Assembly (NCBI GenBank): GCA_034521595.1
Contig: JAXHMG010000003.1
Span: forward strand, 1,344,001 to 1,408,000
Length of the DNA: 64,000 nt
From: Gemmatimonadota bacterium
GTDB lineage: Bacteria; Gemmatimonadota; Gemmatimonadetes; Longimicrobiales; Gaopeijiaceae
Direction of reading: 5' to 3'
In this document: positions 2 to 8,642 of the stretch, piece after piece
Layout of the letters: every line of letters begins with the position of its first letter
Position numbering within the stretch: the first letter of the stretch is position 1
Notes under the pieces: generated by a model
The model's database searches: none
What the model saw: only the letters and a program-made list of their open reading frames with translations
Told to the model about the DNA's origin: nothing
Translations under genes and position numbers: made by a program

Positions 2-673
2 TTCGAGCCGGCGGCGGCGGAGGCGGCGACCGGGGAGCCGGCGGACGCGCCGCCCGCGGTGGAGGCGTCCGTTCGCTTCGAGCCGGTCCGCTTCGTGAAG
101 ATGAACGCCATCGCCGAGGCCGCGCTGGAGTTCGCCACGACGGCCGCCGAGATCGCCCTGGGTCTCATCGGCGTCCTGGCGCTCTTCCTGGGACTCCTGA
201 AGATCGCCGAGGAATCGGGCATCATCCATTCCCTGGTGCGCCTCGTGCGGCCCGTCCTGCGCCCGCTCTTCCCGGACATCCCCCCGGATCACCCCGCGCT
301 GGGCATGATCGCCCTCAACCTCACGGCCAACATCTTCGGGCTGGGCAACGCGGCCACGCCCTTCGGAATCAAGGCCATGGAGGAGCTCCAGGAGCTGAAC
401 CCCAGCGAGGACACGGCCACGAACTCGATGGTCATGCTCCTCGCCATGAACACCGCCAGCGTGCAGCTCGTGCCGCCCGTCCTCCTGCTGGCGCTCATGG
501 GCCTCCAGATCAATCAGTTGATCTTCGCCATCATCCTCACCACGGGCCTGTCGCTCGTCGTGGCCGTCACGGCGGCCCGCCTCTACGGCCGGATGCCGGG
601 CAGCCGCGCCTCGGATCCCCACGACCGTTCGGACGCGGGCACGACCCCGTCCGCGGCCGGCGGCACGGACTGA
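2..673 (+). CDS. spmA: SpmA-family (spore maturation protein A, nucleoside-recognition/Gate domain) membrane protein, 5' truncated by the window edge
   Basis: Motifs LFLGLLKIAEESG, LRPLFPDIPPDHPALGMIALNLTANIFGLGNAATPFGIKAMEELQELNP and MNTASVQLVP are typical of SpmA. The frame is open back to position 2. Confidence 0.9.
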   Translation, partial: FEPAAAEAATGEPADAPPAVEASVRFEPVRFVKMNAIAEAALEFATTAAEIALGLIGVLALFLGLLKIAEESGIIHSLVRLVRPVLRPLFPDIPPDHPALGMIALNLTANIFGLGNAATPFGIKAMEELQELNPSEDTATNSMVMLLAMNTASVQLVPPVLLLALMGLQINQLIFAIILTTGLSLVVAVTAARLYGRMPGSRASDPHDRSDAGTTPSAAGGTD

Positions 674-683
674 GGAGGCGATC

Positions 684-1226
684 ATGGAGACCATCCGTCA
701 GACCATCGGCCTGCTCTCGTACTTCGTCATCCCGCTCATGCTGGTGGGCTTCCCGCTCTACGGGCTCTACAAGCGAGTGCCGGTCTACGAGGCGTTCGTG
801 GAGGGGGCGAAGGAAGGATTCAGCGTCGCGGTCCGCATCATCCCGTACCTCGTCGCGATCCTCTTCGCCATCGGCATGTTCAGGGCCAGCGGCGCGATGG
901 AGTTCATGGTCGAGGCGCTGCGGCCGGCGCTCGCGCTGGTCGGCTTTCCCGCCGAGGTCCTGCCCATGGCCATCATCCGCCCCCTCTCGGGCTCGGGCTC
1001 GGCGGGCGTCGTGGCCGAGATGATCGCGACCTACGGGGAGGATTCGATCCTCGTGAAGATGGCCGCCGTCATGTTCGGCTCGACGGAGACCACCTTCTAC
1101 GTGGTGGCCGTGTACTTCGGGGCCGTGAACATCCGGCGCACCCGCCACGCGGTGCCGGCGGGGCTGACCGCCGACATCGCCGCCATGCTCTTCGCGGTGT
1201 GGAGCGTGCGGCTGTTGTTCGGATGA
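684..1226 (+). CDS. spmB: SpmB-family (spore maturation protein B) membrane protein
   Basis: VYEAFVEGAKEG, IIPYLVAILFAIGMFRASGA, IRPLSGSGS and GSTETTFYVVAVYFGAV..R.RHA are SpmB signatures. RBS GAGGAGG upstream. Confidence 0.93.
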   Translation: METIRQTIGLLSYFVIPLMLVGFPLYGLYKRVPVYEAFVEGAKEGFSVAVRIIPYLVAILFAIGMFRASGAMEFMVEALRPALALVGFPAEVLPMAIIRPLSGSGSAGVVAEMIATYGEDSILVKMAAVMFGSTETTFYVVAVYFGAVNIRRTRHAVPAGLTADIAAMLFAVWSVRLLFG

Positions 1227-2658
1227 GCGCCCGCTCCATGCACTTCCACCTGATCGGTATCGCGGGCACCGCCATGGGCTCCCTGGCGGGCCTGCTCCGC
1301 GAGAAAGGGCATGCCGTCACCGGCTCGGACGAGGGCGTCTATCCCCCCATGTCCACGATGCTCGACGCGCTCGGCATCGACTACGCCCACGGCTTCGACC
1401 CGTCGAACCTGGAGCCGGAGCCGGACGTGGTCGTCGTCGGCAACGCCATCAGCCGCGGCAACCCGGAGCTCGAGGCCGTGCTGGACCGGGGGCTCCGCTA
1501 CACCTCGGCCGCGGTGGTCCTCAAGGACGAGTTCCTCCAGGGCAAGCACGTCCTCGCCGTCGCGGGCACCCACGGCAAGACGACGACCGCGTCGCTCCTC
1601 GCGCACCTGCTGGAGCGCTCCGGGCTCGAGCCGTCGTTCCTGGTGGGCGGCGTGGTGGAGAGCTTCGGCACGTCGTTCCGGCTCACCGGATCGGATCTGT
1701 TCGTGATGGAGGCGGACGAGTACGACACGGCCTACTTCGACAAGGGGCCGAAGATGTGGCACTACCTGCCCCGGACGGCGGTGGTGACGAACGTGGAGTT
1801 CGACCACGCCGACATCTACCGCGACGAGATCGCCTACCGCTTCGCCTTCGAGCGCTTCGTGAACCTCGTGCCCCGCACGGGGACGCTGGTCATCGGGTGG
1901 GAGGGCGAGACCGAGCGCGCGCTCGCCGGCCGGTCCTGGGCGCCGGTGGAATCGTTCGGGCTCGACGAAGGAGGCTCCGGCACCCGCATCCCGGCTGGCG
2001 GGCCCGCGAGATCGAGTACACCTCGGAGGGCGCCACCTTCACGCTCGTCCACGACGGCCACGAGGTGGGGCGCTTCCGGACCCCCCTCACCGGCGCCTTC
2101 AACGTGCGGAACTGCCTCGCCGCCATGGCCGCGGCCCGCGCCGTGGGCGCGTCGTGGGAGGGGATCCGGGAGGGTCTCGCCACCTTCGAGCCGGTGCGGC
2201 GCCGGATGGAGATCCGCGGGGAGGTCGGAGGCGTGACCGTCATCGACGACTTCGCCCACCATCCCACGTCGGTCCGCGAGAGCGTGGCGGCCGCGCGCCA
2301 GCGGTTCGCGGACAGCCGGATCGTGGCCGTCTTCGAGCCCCGCAGCTATACGGCCCAACGCAAGGAGTTCGAAGACGCCTTCCGTGGGGCGCTCGGGACC
2401 GCCGACCGCGTCGTCCTCGCGGGGCTCTACCACCCCGAGCGCTACGACGCGCGCACCGGAATGGATCCGCGGGCGCTGGTGGAGGGGCTCCGGTCGGACG
2501 GCGTGGAGGCCGCCTACATTCCGGAGGTCGGCGACATCGTGCGCGCGGTGGCGTCCGAGGCCAGCGCCGGGGACGTGCTCCTCGTCATGTCGAACGGAGC
2601 GTTCGGGGGGATCCACGAGAAGCTCCTCGAGCGCCTGGCGTCCGCGGAACAGCGTTGA
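1223..2658 (+). CDS. mpl: UDP-MurNAc:L-Ala-gamma-D-Glu-mDAP ligase (murein peptide ligase), split by one frameshift near 1960-1995
   Basis: The first frame has HLIGIAGTAMGSLA, YPPMST, GNAISRGNPE, AGTHGKTTT, EADEYDTAYFDK and NVEFDHADIY. The second frame (ending 2658) has RRRME, IDDFAHHPT, FEPRS and MSNGAFGGIHEKLL. ATG at 1223 overlaps the spmB stop (ATGA). Confidence 0.9.
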
Positions 2659-2680
2659 AGGGGCCTCCCCCGGTGGCGGA

Positions 2681-4384
2681 CTATCGTCCGAGCGCCACCC
2701 CGCCCCGCCGCGGATCCGCCGCGCCCTCGAGCGTGCCGTCCGCCCGTACCCACACCGCCTGCACGTCGCCGGACATCTCATCGCGCTCCACCACCTCGTG
2801 CCCCAGGGCGCGCAGCTCCTCCACCACGCCGGCGGGGAGCCCGCCCGGCTCGACGTGGATCCGGTCCGGAAGGTGCTGATGATGCACGCGCGGCGCCGCG
2901 ACCGCGTCGGCCAGGCTCATCCCGTGGTCGGCCACGTTGGAGATCACCTGGAAGATCGTGGTCATGATGGTCGCGCCCCCCGGGTTCCCGACGACCATGA
3001 CGAGCCGCCCACCCTCGTCCAGGACCAGCGTGGGCGTCATCGTGGACAGCATGCGTTTGCCGGGCGCCACGGCGTTGGCCTCGCTCTGGACCAGGCCGAA
3101 GTGGTTCGGCACCCCGGGCTTGGCGGTGAAGTCGTCCATGTCGTTGTTCAGGAGCACGCCCGTGCCCTCCGCCACGACCTTGCTCCCGTACCACGTGTTG
3201 AGCGTCGTGGTGAGCGAGACGGCTCCGCCCTCGCCGTCGACGATGGAGACGTGCGTGGTGTGGCTACCCTCCCTCCGCGCCCGGAAGCCCTCCACGCCGG
3301 GGGTGACTTCCTTCGCGGCCGTCGCCGCCTCGGGGGAGAGCGACGCAGCCCGCCAGGCCCCGTACTCGGCGGAGATCAGCGTCTCGAGGGGGATCTCCGT
3401 GTAGTCCGGATCGGCGAGGTAGTGGTTGCGGTCCGCATAGGCCCGCTTCCACGCCTCGGCCAGCAGGTGCACGTGCCGTGCTCCGTGCCAGGCGAGGTCA
3501 CCCAGCGTCCACCCGGAGAGGATCTGCGCCATCGCGGCCAGAGTCACGCCGCCCGACGACGAGGGGGGCATGGAGACGATCGTGTGCCCGCGGTACCGGA
3601 ACCGGAGGGGCTCCCGCCACACGGAAGTGTACGACGCCAGATCCTCGTGCGTCAGGAGGCCGCCGCCGCGCCGCATCTCGTCGACCAGCAGGTCGGCGGT
3701 CTCCCCACGGTAGAAGCCGTCGGGGCCCGCGTCGCGGATGCGCTCCAGCGTCCGGACGAGGTCCGGCTGCCGGAGCTCGTCGCCCTCACACGGCACGGCG
3801 CCACCAGGAAGGAAGACGTCGGCGCTGGCGGGAAACCGGCGGAGCGCGGCCACGATGTGCGGCTCGTACGACCGCACCAGCCGGCGCCGTACCACGAAGC
3901 CCCGCGCCAGCGCCACCGCCGGCTCGACCAGCCGCGCCCACGCCATCGAGCCGAAGCGGACGTGGGCGTCCCACAGCCCCCGCACCGAGCCCGGCACGGC
4001 CACCGCCAGGTGACCGAGCTCGGATGCGTCCGTCACGGCACCGTCCGCATCGAGAAACATGTCCGGCGTGGCGCCCGACGGCGCGACGCTCCGAAAGTCC
4101 AGCGCGGCCGTCGCACCGCCGCCGGTGCGCACGAGCATGAACCCGCTCCCGCCCACGTTGCCGGCCTCCGGGTTCACGACCGCCAGCGCGAACGACACGG
4201 CCACGGCGGCGTCCACCGCGTTACCACCCTCCTCGAGCACGTCCACGCCCACCCGGCTCGCGTAACGGTCGGTGGTCGCCACCATGCCCCGCTCCGCCTC
4301 CACGGCCGCGCCGCCGAAGGGAAAGGGCCAGCGGACGGGCCAGTGCTCGAAGCCGGACGACGGGCTCACGGGTTCTTCGCTCAA
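2681..4384 (-). CDS. ggt: Gamma-glutamyltransferase (Ntn hydrolase), apparently without a signal peptide
   Basis: GGNAVDAAVA, GNVGGSGFML, autocleavage site HTTHVS, LLNNDMDDF, PGKRMLSTMTP and ADPRR. The start (TTG 4384 or GTG 4369) is uncertain; GGAGAGG lies upstream. Confidence 0.92.
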   Translation of the reverse strand: MSEEPVSPSSGFEHWPVRWPFPFGGAAVEAERGMVATTDRYASRVGVDVLEEGGNAVDAAVAVSFALAVVNPEAGNVGGSGFMLVRTGGGATAALDFRSVAPSGATPDMFLDADGAVTDASELGHLAVAVPGSVRGLWDAHVRFGSMAWARLVEPAVALARGFVVRRRLVRSYEPHIVAALRRFPASADVFLPGGAVPCEGDELRQPDLVRTLERIRDAGPDGFYRGETADLLVDEMRRGGGLLTHEDLASYTSVWREPLRFRYRGHTIVSMPPSSSGGVTLAAMAQILSGWTLGDLAWHGARHVHLLAEAWKRAYADRNHYLADPDYTEIPLETLISAEYGAWRAASLSPEAATAAKEVTPGVEGFRARREGSHTTHVSIVDGEGGAVSLTTTLNTWYGSKVVAEGTGVLLNNDMDDFTAKPGVPNHFGLVQSEANAVAPGKRMLSTMTPTLVLDEGGRLVMVVGNPGGATIMTTIFQVISNVADHGMSLADAVAAPRVHHQHLPDRIHVEPGGLPAGVVEELRALGHEVVERDEMSGDVQAVWVRADGTLEGAADPRRGGVALGR

Positions 4385-4511
4385 CGTGCGTGCATCCTCT
4401 CCGGGGTCTCGAGTCCGGAGCCTCGAGGGCTCGGGAGCGCCTGGGGCGTTCTCGTGGTGCTCGCGGCGGCCCCTCCTCGCGCGGGCGCCGCGGGTCGGTG
4501 ATAATCCTATC

Positions 4512-5459
4512 ATGATTCCACCCTCCGAAGCGACGCGCTCGCCCAGCGTCCCGCCCCGGGCCCTCCGGCCGGGCACGCGCATCGCCCTGGTGGCTCCCGC
4601 GGGCCCGGTGGACCCCGAGCGCGTGGAGGCCTCACAGGACCGCTGCCGTGCGCTGGGGATCGAGCCGGTGGTGTTTCCCGCGGCGCGGGCCCGCCACCGC
4701 TATCTGGCCGGCACCGACGCAGAGCGCCTCGCCGATCTCCAGGCCGCCTTCGACGACCCCGCGATCGACGGCGTCTGGGCGCTACGCGGTGGCTACGGCA
4801 CGCTCCGGATCCTCGACGCCCTGGACCTCGAACGGCAGCGGACCGACCCCATTCCGTTCATCGGCTTCAGCGACAACACCTCCATCCACGTGCGCCACGC
4901 CGCCCTGGGCGTCGTCTCCTTCCACGGCCCCCACCCCGGCGGCGATTTTCCTCCGGAGACCGAAGAGGCATTCCAGCGCGTGCTCTTCTCGGCCGACGCG
5001 CCGGGGCCGCTCGTGTCGCGGGACGGCGATCCTCCTGCGCGCACGCTGGAGCCCGGACGGGTCGAAGCCCCCCTGGTCGGGGGCAACCTGGCCCTCCTGG
5101 CCTCCATGTGCGGCACGCGCCACGCCCTCGACGCCCGGGGCTGCATCCTTTTTCTGGAGGACGTCGCCGAGCCGGCGTACCGGGTGGACCGCATGCTCCT
5201 CCAGCTCCGCGGCTCCGGGCTCCTCGACGGCGTCCTCGGGTTGGCGTTGGGACGCTTCACGGAGGATCCCGAAGGCGACACCCATCCCGTGGCCGAGGTT
5301 CTTCGGGAGCTCGCGGAGCACCTCGGCATCCCGGCGGTCGCCGACCTTCCCTTCGGCCACACCGAGCACAACTGCACGCTGCCCGTCGGGGGCCTCGCCC
5401 GATTGGAGGCGGACACCGCGACGCTCGTGCTCACTCAGGGCGCCGTGCGGGGGGAGTGA
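4512..5459 (+). CDS. ldcA: LD-carboxypeptidase, peptidase S66 (LdcA family)
   Basis: LRGGYG, FIGFSDNT (catalytic Ser), GGNL, FLEDVAE (Glu) and PFGH (His). Confidence 0.92.
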   Translation: MIPPSEATRSPSVPPRALRPGTRIALVAPAGPVDPERVEASQDRCRALGIEPVVFPAARARHRYLAGTDAERLADLQAAFDDPAIDGVWALRGGYGTLRILDALDLERQRTDPIPFIGFSDNTSIHVRHAALGVVSFHGPHPGGDFPPETEEAFQRVLFSADAPGPLVSRDGDPPARTLEPGRVEAPLVGGNLALLASMCGTRHALDARGCILFLEDVAEPAYRVDRMLLQLRGSGLLDGVLGLALGRFTEDPEGDTHPVAEVLRELAEHLGIPAVADLPFGHTEHNCTLPVGGLARLEADTATLVLTQGAVRGE

Positions 5460-5558
5460 CCGGGCGCTCACGTCAGACCCCGTCCGGGCGGCGCCGACGC
5501 CCGCCTCGTCCTCCGAATGGGCCAGACGACGGAGAGCACCGACCCAAGGGCCGTCCCA

Positions 5559-5645
5559 CCGGTCCACGTGACGATCCCCTACTCCGACGCGACTCGAGAG
5601 CTCAACCGCTGGCTAGCCCTCGTGACGTGGTTTCTGGCCAAACCC
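5559..5645 (+). pseudogene. Remnant resembling part of a DUF4389 membrane protein
   Basis: PVHVTIPYSDATRELNRWLALVTWFLAKP resembles the DUF4389 repeat pattern (..YPD..R.LNRWLPLVKW.LAIPH) as recalled; similarity is lost after this stretch. Confidence 0.55.
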
Positions 5646-5713
5646 AGTTGCAAAACGCCGGGCAGGCGGCCACCCTATCCATCTCACCCGACGATGCCCC
5701 GAACACGATGATC

Positions 5714-6772
5714 ATGCGTCCCAAGACTATTGCGTTCCTCGCCTCGCTCGCAGCGCTCCTTATCCTACCCGGAACCGCGCAAGCACAAGCCGGCGCCCCC
5801 TACAAGCTCGGCATGTTCGCCGAGGACCAACGGAGCTTCGTGGGCGTCGTGATCGACGATGCGGTCGTGGTGGATCTCTCCCGGGCCGAAGCCGACGCGC
5901 CGGAAACCCTCGCCGGGCTGATCGAGCAGTGGGACGAGTCCTGGGCGAACCGGATCGCGAGCTTGGCGGCCACGGCGCGCCAGAACCCGCCGGCGTACGT
6001 GTTCCCGCTCGACCGCCTGACCACGCTCCCGCCGCTCAGCGACCCCGACGTCCTCCTGATGGCGGCCCGCAACTACGTCGAGCACGCGGAGGAGATGGCG
6101 GCGGTGGGCCGAACCGCGGGAACGACCGACGAGATCGACGACAGCGTGCGAGTCGGGTTGCCGGGCATCTGGGACCGCGACCCCGACGACAACCGGCCGA
6201 ATCCCTACCTCTTCCCGAAGCTGAAGACCGCACTCTCGGCGAACGGCGATCCGATCGTGCTCCCGCCGGGACGCCCGAACATCGATTTCGAGTGCGAGCT
6301 GGTGGCGGTCGTGGGCCGCACCGCCAAGCGCATCTCCGTGGACGACGCGCTCGACCACGTCTTCGGCTACATGGCGATCGTGGACGTCTCCGACCGACAG
6401 GAGCGCGCGGACGGCCGCTACGGGTCGGACTGGTTCATGGGCAAGAGCCACGACTCGTTCGGCCCGAGCGGACCGTTCGTGGTCCCGGCCCCGTTCATCG
6501 GCGATCCGCAGGACCTCGACGTCCGCTACACGCTGAACGGCGAGCTCATGCAGGACGCCAACACGAGCCTCATGGTGCACACGGTGCGCGACCTGGTGTC
6601 GTTCGCCTCGCACATCGTCACGCTCGGGCCCGGTGACCTGGTCGGCACGGGCACCCCGGGCGGCGTGGGCGAAGGCCGGACGCCACCCGTCTACCTACAG
6701 GACGGTGACGTCGGCCAGTGCACCATCGAGGGCATCGGCACGCTGCGGAATCCGGTCGTGGACGCGCCGTAG
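5714..6772 (+). CDS. Fumarylacetoacetate hydrolase family protein with an N-terminal signal peptide
   Basis: ARNYVEH, PYLFPK, DFECEL, DVSDR, GKSHDSFGPSGP and TGTPGGVG. N-terminus MRPKTIAFLASLAALLILPGTAQA looks like a Sec signal. Alternative ATG at 5708. Confidence 0.88.
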   Translation: MRPKTIAFLASLAALLILPGTAQAQAGAPYKLGMFAEDQRSFVGVVIDDAVVVDLSRAEADAPETLAGLIEQWDESWANRIASLAATARQNPPAYVFPLDRLTTLPPLSDPDVLLMAARNYVEHAEEMAAVGRTAGTTDEIDDSVRVGLPGIWDRDPDDNRPNPYLFPKLKTALSANGDPIVLPPGRPNIDFECELVAVVGRTAKRISVDDALDHVFGYMAIVDVSDRQERADGRYGSDWFMGKSHDSFGPSGPFVVPAPFIGDPQDLDVRYTLNGELMQDANTSLMVHTVRDLVSFASHIVTLGPGDLVGTGTPGGVGEGRTPPVYLQDGDVGQCTIEGIGTLRNPVVDAP

Positions 6773-7311: not shown

Positions 7312-8193
7312 CTATCGCTTCGCCGCCTCCTCGACGCGCCGCATCACCACGTTCACGAGCTGATCCGACGAGCCCGCCACCACGGCCCAGGCGTAGAGCG
7401 ACAGCTCCGTGTCGGCCTCGAGGGGGAGCAAGCCGCTCTGCAGGACGGTGACGACGATGACGGCGCTCAGCGCGCCGATGAACGGGCGCACGGTCCACCC
7501 CGAAGCCGAGCCCAGGAACTCGGGAATCCGCCCACCGACCCCCACCTGGCTCAGGATGTTGCTCAACAGGGCTCCGGTCCCCCCGGCCAGGACGATCACC
7601 GCCAGCGTCTCGGGGTGATGGAGGATCGACGGTGAGGCCACGGGGTCCAGAAAGAACGATACGGCCACGAGCACCAGCACGGCGGGAATCACGATCCACC
7701 GGAGGGCCGAGAACTGGACGGCGGCCGCGTTCAACTTGAAGTAGACGTTGGCGAAGTGCTGGTCGAGCAGGAACTGCGCCAGCGCCAGGTTCTCGGGGTC
7801 GACCTCTCCTTCCGTGTCGAGAAGGTCGAGGATGGCCCCACGGCGCCAGTTCGAGAGCTTCTCCTCGGCTTCCCAGCGGAGCGCCTTCCGGTGCGCCTCC
7901 CGGCTGGCGGGCGGCAGGGTCTGCAGCACGAATCGGGATGCCTGATGACAGTGCGCCCAGGCCACCTGGTCCTTTCCGTGCTCGGCGGCGTCCCGCGCGG
8001 TCGCCAAGCTGTTCCGCGCCATCCGTAGCGCGGCGCCGGGCCCCTCCGGAGGCGCCGAGGACTCCTGATACTCGACCATCCGATCGACCTCGGCCAAAGC
8101 CGCTTCGAGCCGCGCACGCCGGAGATCGTCGACACTGCTCGTCACCGCATGGTCTTCGTGCGTGGCGCGCGCACCTTCCTCGTCCCGGGTCAT
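7312..8193 (-). CDS. Uncharacterised membrane protein: helical N-terminal domain plus about 4 TM helices
   Basis: Hydrophobic C-terminal half with GGTGALLS, RPFIGALSA, LQSGLLP and AVVAGSSDQL. Start overlaps the NUDIX stop (ATGA). Confidence 0.8.
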   Translation of the reverse strand: MTRDEEGARATHEDHAVTSSVDDLRRARLEAALAEVDRMVEYQESSAPPEGPGAALRMARNSLATARDAAEHGKDQVAWAHCHQASRFVLQTLPPASREAHRKALRWEAEEKLSNWRRGAILDLLDTEGEVDPENLALAQFLLDQHFANVYFKLNAAAVQFSALRWIVIPAVLVLVAVSFFLDPVASPSILHHPETLAVIVLAGGTGALLSNILSQVGVGGRIPEFLGSASGWTVRPFIGALSAVIVVTVLQSGLLPLEADTELSLYAWAVVAGSSDQLVNVVMRRVEEAAKR

Positions 8194-8642
8194 GCCTCAC
8201 CCCCCTTGGTGGACGGGAGCAACTGCCGGAGGACGGCCCGCTCCCCGTCGTAGGTCAACCGCCGCAACGCGTCCTCCGGGGAAAGCCAATGCACGGATCG
8301 TACCTCCGTCGCGTCCGGCGTTCCCTCCTCTCCCTCGAACGCCATGGGAAAGAAGACGGTCACCTTCGGCACGCCGTCGACCGAGTACTCCGAGAAGCAG
8401 GCGGGCCCGGTCACCGTCGCGCTGCATCCGGTCTCCTCGAGGACCTCGCGCCGAGCCGCTTCGACGAGACGCTCCCCCGGCTCGAGCTTCCCCTTCGGAA
8501 GCGTCCAATCTCCTTGCCCGCCGTCCCGGTCTTCGTAGCGCGCGCGGTGGAGGACGGCGATTCTCGGCGAGGTGCGCGTCCCGCGCCACACTACGCCCCC
8601 GGCCGCGAGGACGTGGGTCGGCTTCGATTTGTCCCTGCTCAT
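8190..8642 (-). CDS. NUDIX hydrolase (Ap4A hydrolase / MutT1-like)
   Basis: AAGGVVWR, DWTLPKG and Nudix box GKLEPGERLVEAARREVLEETG. RBS GGAGGG. Confidence 0.92.
   Translation of the reverse strand: MSRDKSKPTHVLAAGGVVWRGTRTSPRIAVLHRARYEDRDGGQGDWTLPKGKLEPGERLVEAARREVLEETGCSATVTGPACFSEYSVDGVPKVTVFFPMAFEGEEGTPDATEVRSVHWLSPEDALRRLTYDGERAVLRQLLPSTKGGEA

Follow-up and report, generated by a model that had tools for sequence, protein, structure and literature searches.

The spmA-spmB-mpl unit of a Gemmatimonadota bacterium and a candidate role for SpmAB in the uptake of peptidoglycan stem peptides

We analysed a 64,000-nucleotide stretch of DNA (the window) from a Gemmatimonadota bacterium, which begins inside the gene for the 'spore maturation' protein SpmA and continues with spmB, mpl, a gamma-glutamyltransferase gene (ggt) and a gene for an LdcA-like LD-carboxypeptidase of family S66. 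We propose that SpmA and SpmB (together SpmAB) import free stem peptides of peptidoglycan, to be used by LdcA, Mpl and MpaA, a reading that we hold at slightly better than even odds (roughly 0.55). Genomes are labelled G and loci L; G000 is the source genome (3.49 Mb in three contigs, C1 and C3 among them, 67-69% G+C, rated 93% complete), in which the window corresponds to C3:1344001-1408000, and L022 is its nearest relative.

The locus in the source genome

The genes spmA, spmB and mpl all lie on the + strand and are followed by ggt on the - strand and by the S66 gene on the + strand. Only the 3' part of spmA falls within the window (2..673, +; stop TGA at 671-673), the gene beginning 367 nt before it, at C3:1343634. 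A 10-nt spacer (674..683, +), which as read in the sequence opens with the Shine-Dalgarno-like GGAGG, leads to spmB (684..1226, +; ATG at 684, stop TGA at 1224-1226), encoding a Gate-domain protein of 180 aa. The mpl start codon, ATG at 1223-1225, overlaps the spmB stop as ATGA (1223-1226), and an alternative mpl start is the ATG at 1238. The raw sequence and the list of open reading frames (ORFs) thus confirm the initial annotation, which had described spmA-spmB-mpl as one unit with a 10-bp gap and the ATGA overlap; that the spmA start lies outside the window, that the mpl frame is split and that ggt is on the opposite strand were absent from it. The ggt gene (2681..4582, -; coordinates of the longest ORF, true start uncertain) converges with mpl, the two being 22 nt apart, and diverges from the S66 gene, which runs from an ATG at 4512 (4512..5459, +). 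The organism had been taken for a diderm in which endospore maturation is unlikely, and the two families tested agree: LpxC is present in the source genome, and no match to Spo0A_C was found in its 93% complete sequence. Judged by this gene content, the family name 'spore maturation' does not describe the role of SpmAB here.

The mpl gene is represented by two pieces that both score higher on the mpl model TIGR01081 than on murC, each alone remaining below the cut-off of 388.7 bits. The N-terminal part (1223..1978, +) covers model positions 1-252 with 292.4 bits (murC 182.6), and the C-terminal part (1981..2658, +, in the frame of 1756) covers positions 245-447 with 158.9 bits (murC 131.9); the intact orthologues in L022 and L005 reach 433.5 and 427.6 bits. 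A separate MurC-like gene lies elsewhere in the chromosome, at C3:1756352-1757695. In the assembly mpl is not one open frame, one base being missing or two being extra in a linker of variable length. Alignment with nine relatives, all intact, places the frame switch at about 1960-1990 of the window, with the motif SFGLDEGGSG before it and HPGWRAREIEY after it. We compared this stretch with the short-read contigs of four public sequencing runs. The run X1 matched best (0.79 of the sampled words) and could be the source sample itself; those parts of mpl that lack contig cover in X2, X3 and X5 were excluded from the evidence. One X1 contig tracks the window from 1300 to 1967 and then continues with 59 letters unlike it, a second covers 1987-2600 and is preceded by 22 letters unlike it, and no contig bridges the gap; as read from the letters, each continuation remains in the Mpl frame of the side it extends. 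Independent assembly therefore does not confirm the 19 bases behind the frameshift (1968..1986, +), because the X1 contigs leave the window at 1967 and rejoin it at 1987. The likeliest explanation of the frameshift is an assembly artefact, or else strain variation within a variable linker; a dead gene is less likely.

The S66 enzyme carries the Pfam S66 and S66C domains (PF02016, 112.4 bits; PF17676, 118.6 bits). It missed the threshold of the LdcA equivalog model NF008424 (174.2 bits, cut-off 378) and is accordingly classed as an LdcA-like member of the S66 family. Its closest solved relatives are LdcA structures (6uuk and 1zrs, E ~1e-41, full length), and the residues aligned to the GFSD, LED and GH motifs of Pseudomonas aeruginosa LdcA, whose Ser, Glu and His we take to be the catalytic triad, are conserved. 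The microcin C resistance protein MccF is also an S66 member and matches the window enzyme (E ~1e-22, partial), and the Gate domain is named for nucleoside recognition, so that SpmAB and the S66 enzyme might together take up and detoxify microcin C-type peptidyl-nucleotide antibiotics. The far better, full-length match to LdcA speaks against this idea, as does the lack of any place in it for Mpl or for the MpaA, S11 and S13 neighbours described below, and we regard it as extremely unlikely.

Comparison by tblastn of 18 SpmB loci from the phylum, each with 8 kb on either side, and of such loci around Mpl from two genomes without SpmB, places the window genes in their lineage. Three genomes (G143, G061 and G113) carry spmA-spmB-mpl-ldcA with all four genes on the same strand, G079 and G124 keep the same order with a gene for a ~1126-aa Rce1-like membrane protein between spmB and mpl, and G141 has mpl-ldcA without spmAB. 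Among the compared loci ggt stands between mpl and ldcA solely in G000 and L022, whose SpmB proteins are 90% identical. The gene is a clear family member (512.8 bits on TIGR00066, cut-off 357.85), and the source genome holds four copies, the three others lying at C3:414423-416012, C3:3021938-3023491 and C1:94641-96206. Because ggt occurs here only in these two genomes and has three paralogues elsewhere, it is a recent insertion that does not belong to the conserved cluster; the ancestral unit in the lineage is spmA-spmB-mpl-ldcA, into which ggt was inserted later, at genus level. The order given previously, with ggt and then a divergent S66 gene after mpl, therefore stands, while ggt as a conserved member of the system is rejected. 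A role for ggt on gamma-D-Glu bonds was considered and is without support.

Several further observations concern the surroundings of the unit. The ggt paralogue on C1 is 47% identical to the window copy. The ~1126-aa gene of G079 and G124 (L003:8574-11954 and L004:4586-7975) carries an Rce1-like CAAX-protease domain, and CAAX-type proteases of family M48 also adjoin spmAB in two Balneolales loci (L049 and L052). Directly upstream of spmA in G000 is an ORF of 1137 aa with a strong coding signal (L001:6110-9523, window -3890..-477, +), for which neither Pfam nor tblastn against the 20 related loci gave a match. Downstream of the ldcA-like gene are a gene for an FAA-hydrolase family protein (5108-6772, +), the long N-terminal extension of which reflects a maximal-ORF call, and farther on one for a NUDIX hydrolase (8190-8642, -); neither recurred beside spmAB in the other loci.

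SpmA and SpmB as a predicted elevator-type transporter

SpmA and SpmB each contain one Gate domain (PF07670, cut-off 29.6 bits), scoring 49.2 bits in SpmA (47.8 for the full protein) and 55.4 in SpmB. The full-length SpmA of 346 aa (window -367..673, L001:9633-10673) consists of a first helix, an alpha/beta insert of about 125 aa and the Gate-domain membrane part; the model of the whole protein has a pLDDT of 85.7, and the insert (residues ~30-150) folds confidently. This insert is common to 30 aligned SpmA sequences from Gemmatimonadota, Rhodothermales, Balneolales, Phycisphaerae, Calditrichaceae and Ignavibacteria-like metagenome-assembled genomes (MAGs). A structure search with the whole model gave no match covering it (best Z 6.9, membrane helices only), and ESM Atlas yielded no usable match. 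The SpmB of the window is 84% identical to SpmB of Gaopeijia maritima and 58% identical to that of Tissierella; a homologue search with SpmB alone yielded close relatives only.

Many lineages have both halves in one fused protein, and these natural fusions indicate that SpmA and SpmB work together; for Mpl we claim no binding to the carrier. A model of fused SpmAB built on 39 sequences (pLDDT 91.2, pTM 0.86) was searched against 48,161 solved chains. All 13 top matches (Z 8.3-12.2, 264-344 residues aligned) were elevator-type secondary transporters, namely Pho90, ArsB, INDY/DASS, TRAP SiaQM, the AbgT member YdaH and CNT, the next and unrelated match having a Z of 6.9; Foldseek put the same families first. 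Such a match is one of fold only and silent on substrate. From the model, SpmA and SpmB together are predicted to be one elevator-type secondary transporter, with the halves of the carrier corresponding to SpmA and SpmB. They differ from the known members of this superfamily (DASS/INDY, TRAP SiaQM, AbgT, ArsB and CNT), with which they share 7-13% identity, in being shorter, often encoded by two genes and, in many SpmA, equipped with an extra soluble domain. CNT and FeoB also have the Pfam Gate domain. A natural fusion of SpmB to a Peptidase_M15 domain occurs in the representative library (P0124). SpmAB is also found fused to N-terminal Kelch-repeat propellers (P0221 and P0235, 751 and 795 aa), and a 1617-aa ankyrin/Kelch protein is encoded upstream of spmAB in a Verrucomicrobiota locus (L089:77-4930).

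Transporters with the nearest folds have phosphate, arsenite, dicarboxylates, sialic acid and nucleosides as substrates, and SpmAB may handle a different kind of solute, be it an ion, osmolyte, organic anion or nucleoside-like compound, or may act as an exporter, its closeness to wall enzymes reflecting shared envelope regulation. The phenotype described for Bacillus, which concerns hydration of the spore core (PMC8745062; 10.1101/2022.02.25.481979), would fit such a role.

Neighbours of spmAB within and beyond the phylum

An even sample of 151 Gemmatimonadota genomes yielded SpmB in 23, of which 18 have the split type (71-100% identical) and five a fused protein of ~410 aa (45-48% identical). 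Counting as Mpl-level a match of at least 350 bits on TIGR01081, or the window's N-terminal half at 291.5 bits, we found Mpl in 14 of the 151 (ten above the cut-off, three at 351-362 bits, and the window's half), six of which lack SpmB. The spmB and mpl genes lie within 150 bp of each other in six genomes (G000, G113, G061, G143 and the fused-type G029 and G140) and 3.4 kb apart in two more, and mpl thus adjoins two SpmAB types that are only ~45% identical.

The fused loci have a partner of their own. All five read vanY-mpaA-spmAB, with genes overlapping or almost abutting; in two of them mpl follows directly, and one of these two adds an M20 peptidase. The M14 gene is MpaA at equivalog level (NF007897, cut-off 157), with 248.1 bits in L015, 241.4 in L013 and 237-248 across the five genomes. 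A search with the MpaA model over the whole sample found it in exactly these five genomes, which span five genera and three families and in each of which mpaA is just upstream of spmAB. MpaA is described as an amidase that splits the murein tripeptide (PMC6403190). Both SpmAB types, sharing ~45% identity, are thus tied to enzymes acting on free murein tripeptide. The perfect co-occurrence of MpaA with fused SpmAB (5/5 vs 0/146) is hard to reconcile with transport of some other solute, and the stop/start overlaps that join spmB to mpl and mpaA to spmAB argue against an adjacency devoid of functional meaning.

AmpG (TIGR00901), AnmK and an AmpD-type Amidase_2 were not found in G000 (93% complete), which holds two GH3 genes and one S13 gene. 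LdcA-like and Mpl enzymes are nevertheless present, and a cytoplasmic supply of free peptide is therefore needed. An anti-correlation between spmAB and AmpG, for which the initial annotation had proposed a test, was not seen in general, AmpG-like genes occurring in 8 of 23 SpmB-positive and 19 of 128 SpmB-negative genomes. Among the 14 Mpl-positive genomes, seven have SpmB only, three AmpG only, one both and three neither, a weak trend among related genomes. The 'neither' count includes the unpublished genome G097, and the AmpG-like-positive count the unpublished genome G057.

Beyond the phylum, a scan of one genome per species with an alignment of 14 SpmB sequences matched more than 600 stretches, of which the best 80 were kept, leaving 77 after removal of three duplicates. 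Among 136 non-duplicate SpmB loci in all, an S66 gene lies within 150 bp of spmAB in nine, in varied gene orders and in several separate SpmB clades. It is upstream of spmAB in a Neomarinimicrobiota locus (L088) and in three unclassified MAGs whose SpmB groups with it (L057, L066 and L094), and downstream in Phycisphaerales (L058), Tissierella (L060) and Senegalia (L067); the other cases are an unclassified bacterium (L083) and one Clostridia-type genome. Some of these loci have larger clusters. L088 reads S13-S66-spmA-spmB, where the spmB product has a fused VanX-type domain and the next gene encodes NlpC/P60 with SH3; L094 reads S66-spmAB-VanX-S66; and L067 reads murE-lysA-spmAB-S66-M20, MurE and LysA being assigned at equivalog level. 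Elsewhere L053 carries S13, and L054 and L077 carry Amidase_3. Neither ampD nor nagZ was seen directly beside spmAB, the nearest case being one Amidase_2 gene 1.7 kb away in L063, which also has two S13 genes. Where whole genomes were considered, the sole S66 gene adjoins spmAB in G000, in G151 (Tissierella) and in G152 (a Neomarinimicrobiota MAG), and the only strong S66 match of G153 is the gene adjacent to spmAB; G154 (Rubrivirga) has three S66 genes, none adjacent to spmAB.

A tblastn panel of S66, S11, S13, MpaA, VanX, VanY and Mpl over the 136 loci produced 38 hits no more than 150 bp from the spmAB unit (95 per 100 kb searched) and eight hits at 2-9 kb (0.3-1.3 per 100 kb), a contrast that is inflated, most of the families having been picked after the neighbours had been seen and only S66, Mpl and S11 having been named beforehand. 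On a FastTree phylogeny of the 136 SpmB sequences, with a poorly supported backbone and hence rough counts, S66 adjacency within 150 bp (nine rows) requires at least seven state changes and S66 within 5.1 kb (17 rows) at least eight, while Mpl adjacency (nine rows) needs two. The S66-adjacent cases clearly lie in separate SpmB clades with different gene orders. Split-type Gemmatimonadota SpmB sequences are interleaved on the tree with those of Rhodothermales, at 70-82% identity, which suggests transfer of spmAB between the two groups. Since the SpmB of G000 nests in this way among Rhodothermales sequences, the association might be no more than inherited synteny or hitch-hiking on transferred DNA, and the M14 gene beside spmAB within Rhodothermales is probably conserved synteny. 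The at least seven to eight state changes required for S66 and the differing gene orders make such an explanation very unlikely for the association as a whole.

In the phylum of Tissierella (Clostridia-type), SpmB profile A2, which includes the window SpmB, matches 164 of 201 genomes. Scanning the nearest gene on each side in 40 loci on long contigs (L103-L142), we found an S11 carboxypeptidase of DacB type as upstream neighbour in 17; a nearest neighbour on either side is the sporulation gene ytfJ in 10 and S66 in one. A dacB-spmA-spmB operon has been described for Bacillus (PMC8745062), and the S11 neighbours extend this arrangement to the Clostridia-type loci. An RluB-like pseudouridine synthase (S4 and PseudoU_synth_2 domains) is often encoded just downstream of spmB in these loci, three of which (L109, L110 and L134) have 74% G+C, an unusual value for this group.

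The commonest neighbours of spmAB (S11, S13, S66, VanY and VanX-type enzymes) all release D-Ala or cleave D-Ala-D-Ala, and they would fit a smaller substrate than a stem peptide. The chief alternative to our reading is that SpmAB carries D-alanine or D-Ala-D-Ala, salvaging what the DD- and LD-carboxypeptidases release. Other genes near spmAB point the same way: a DAO-family FAD oxidase gene immediately before spmA in L022, an Ala_racemase_N/D-Ser-dehydratase-type gene in L030, an alanine dehydrogenase in L075 and an amino-acid permease after spmB in L057 and L066. Against it, Mpl and MpaA, which directly adjoin spmAB, act on the tripeptide and not on D-Ala, the cytoplasmic S66 enzyme requires tetrapeptide inside the cell, and the L022 oxidase scores best as an N-methyltryptophan oxidase, not as a D-amino-acid dehydrogenase. 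We consider salvage of D-alanine or D-Ala-D-Ala rather improbable.

Proposed role and known recycling systems

According to the proposed import of stem peptides, SpmAB would move free tripeptides, tetrapeptides and perhaps pentapeptides, all of them polycarboxylate anions, out of the periplasm and into the cytoplasm. There the S66 LD-carboxypeptidase would trim tetrapeptide to tripeptide, which Mpl would join to UDP-MurNAc; in modules of the fused type, MpaA would split the tripeptide instead. In a crude hydropathy test the S66 and MpaA proteins beside spmAB start straight at their catalytic domain, without room for a signal peptide, and the S11, S13 and Amidase_3 neighbours have hydrophobic N termini. 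Such a layout, with trimming enzymes outside the membrane, processing enzymes inside it and the carrier between, is that of an uptake route.

Several points weigh against this reading. All of the evidence, whether gene order, families, fold, recurrence of neighbours or phyletic pattern, is association, from which we infer both the substrate and the direction of transport. Among the surveyed loci mpl adjoins spmAB only in Gemmatimonadota, and the mpl of the window is itself split. Within the phylum, 15 of the 23 SpmB-positive genomes have no Mpl-level match at all, and in these the neighbours of spmAB vary (a Ser/Thr kinase, a PDZ protein, a class-V aminotransferase and, in G023, an exported M14 peptidase). 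The source genome holds one Opp/Dpp-type binding protein that could serve import instead, and AmpG-like genes and spmAB are not mutually exclusive in the phylum sample, coexisting in 6 of the 11 genomes of one genus. To these are added the D-Ala chemistry common to many of the neighbours, the after-the-fact choice of most panel families and the crude gene calling in the loci. No panel family lies near spmAB in 54 of the 77 best loci from other genomes, many of which are on short contigs, and such loci without a wall enzyme also favour transport of another solute. The recurrence beside spmAB of non-homologous enzymes acting on the same peptide, in different orders and different phyla, is difficult to explain if SpmAB carried an unrelated solute, which leaves that alternative with a low probability in our judgement. 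The importer reading of the initial annotation survives in part: a recurring link with murein-peptide enzymes extends over several phyla, well beyond close relatives, whereas the membership of ggt, the adjacency of mpl outside Gemmatimonadota and the anti-correlation with AmpG were not sustained.

Peptidoglycan recycling is known mainly from proteobacteria, with import by AmpG and Opp-MppA. The proposed system would resemble Opp-MppA of Escherichia coli in its cytoplasmic set, S66 LdcA-like, Mpl and MpaA enzymes here adjoining the candidate transporter (E. coli mpaA presumably lying near mppA), and in being a free-peptide route, no sugar-recycling branch having been found in G000. It differs in that Opp-MppA is an ABC transporter with a periplasmic binding protein and the candidate here a two-part secondary transporter of the Gate family. 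Like AmpG, SpmAB would feed wall-derived peptide to LdcA and Mpl, but AmpG is a permease of the major facilitator superfamily for GlcNAc-anhMurNAc-peptides and needs AmpD and AnmK downstream, and none of the three was found in the source genome. That an importer other than AmpG can take over recycling where AmpG is missing has a precedent in YejBEF-YepA of Agrobacterium (PMC9790009), which is an ABC transporter unrelated in sequence and fold and, unlike SpmAB, has been demonstrated experimentally.

Two further systems involve SpmAB or similar proteins. The dacB-spmA-spmB operon of B. subtilis has the same genes, and a stem-peptide carboxypeptidase stands next door in 18 of the 40 Clostridia-type loci; its known role is in dehydration of the spore core, whereas the partners in G000 are cytoplasmic recycling enzymes. 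In E. coli K-12, yjiH-yjiG encode an SpmA/SpmB-like pair directly upstream of iadA, the gene of a cytoplasmic isoaspartyl dipeptidase (L102, 4558354-4560680), yjiH and yjiG overlapping by 4 nt and iadA following 12 nt later. This pair belongs to another subfamily (the window SpmB scores 37.9 bits on NF007811, cut-off 111) and has another partner enzyme. YjiG is placed in the InterPro SpmB family and described as uncharacterised (PMC12063145).

A literature search, with most subscription journals beyond its reach, found no paper connecting SpmAB with peptidoglycan recycling. The single paper containing both 'spore maturation' and 'peptidoglycan recycling' has the two terms in unrelated passages. 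According to a preprint of 2022 (10.1101/2022.02.25.481979), how SpmA and SpmB act biochemically is unknown, and a paper of 2026 cites solely the core-hydration phenotype.

We extend the proposal tentatively to the whole SpmAB family, that of endospore formers included, as stem-peptide importers, with YjiHG-IadA as a sister system, so that the family as a whole would take up small non-canonical peptides by a general route; this wider claim is possible, if doubtful. Many phyla have, to our knowledge, LdcA, Mpl or MpaA but no known importer, and if SpmAB imports stem peptides, a widespread two-gene transporter family would fill this gap, and the spore maturation proteins would gain their first biochemical role. 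If the extension holds as well, SpmAB of sporulating cells would rid the cortex compartment of the peptides and D-Ala that DacB and muramic-lactam formation release, which would explain the failure of spmAB mutants to dehydrate the spore core, a puzzle since the operon was described, and YjiHG-IadA of E. coli would be a sister system for isoaspartyl peptides.

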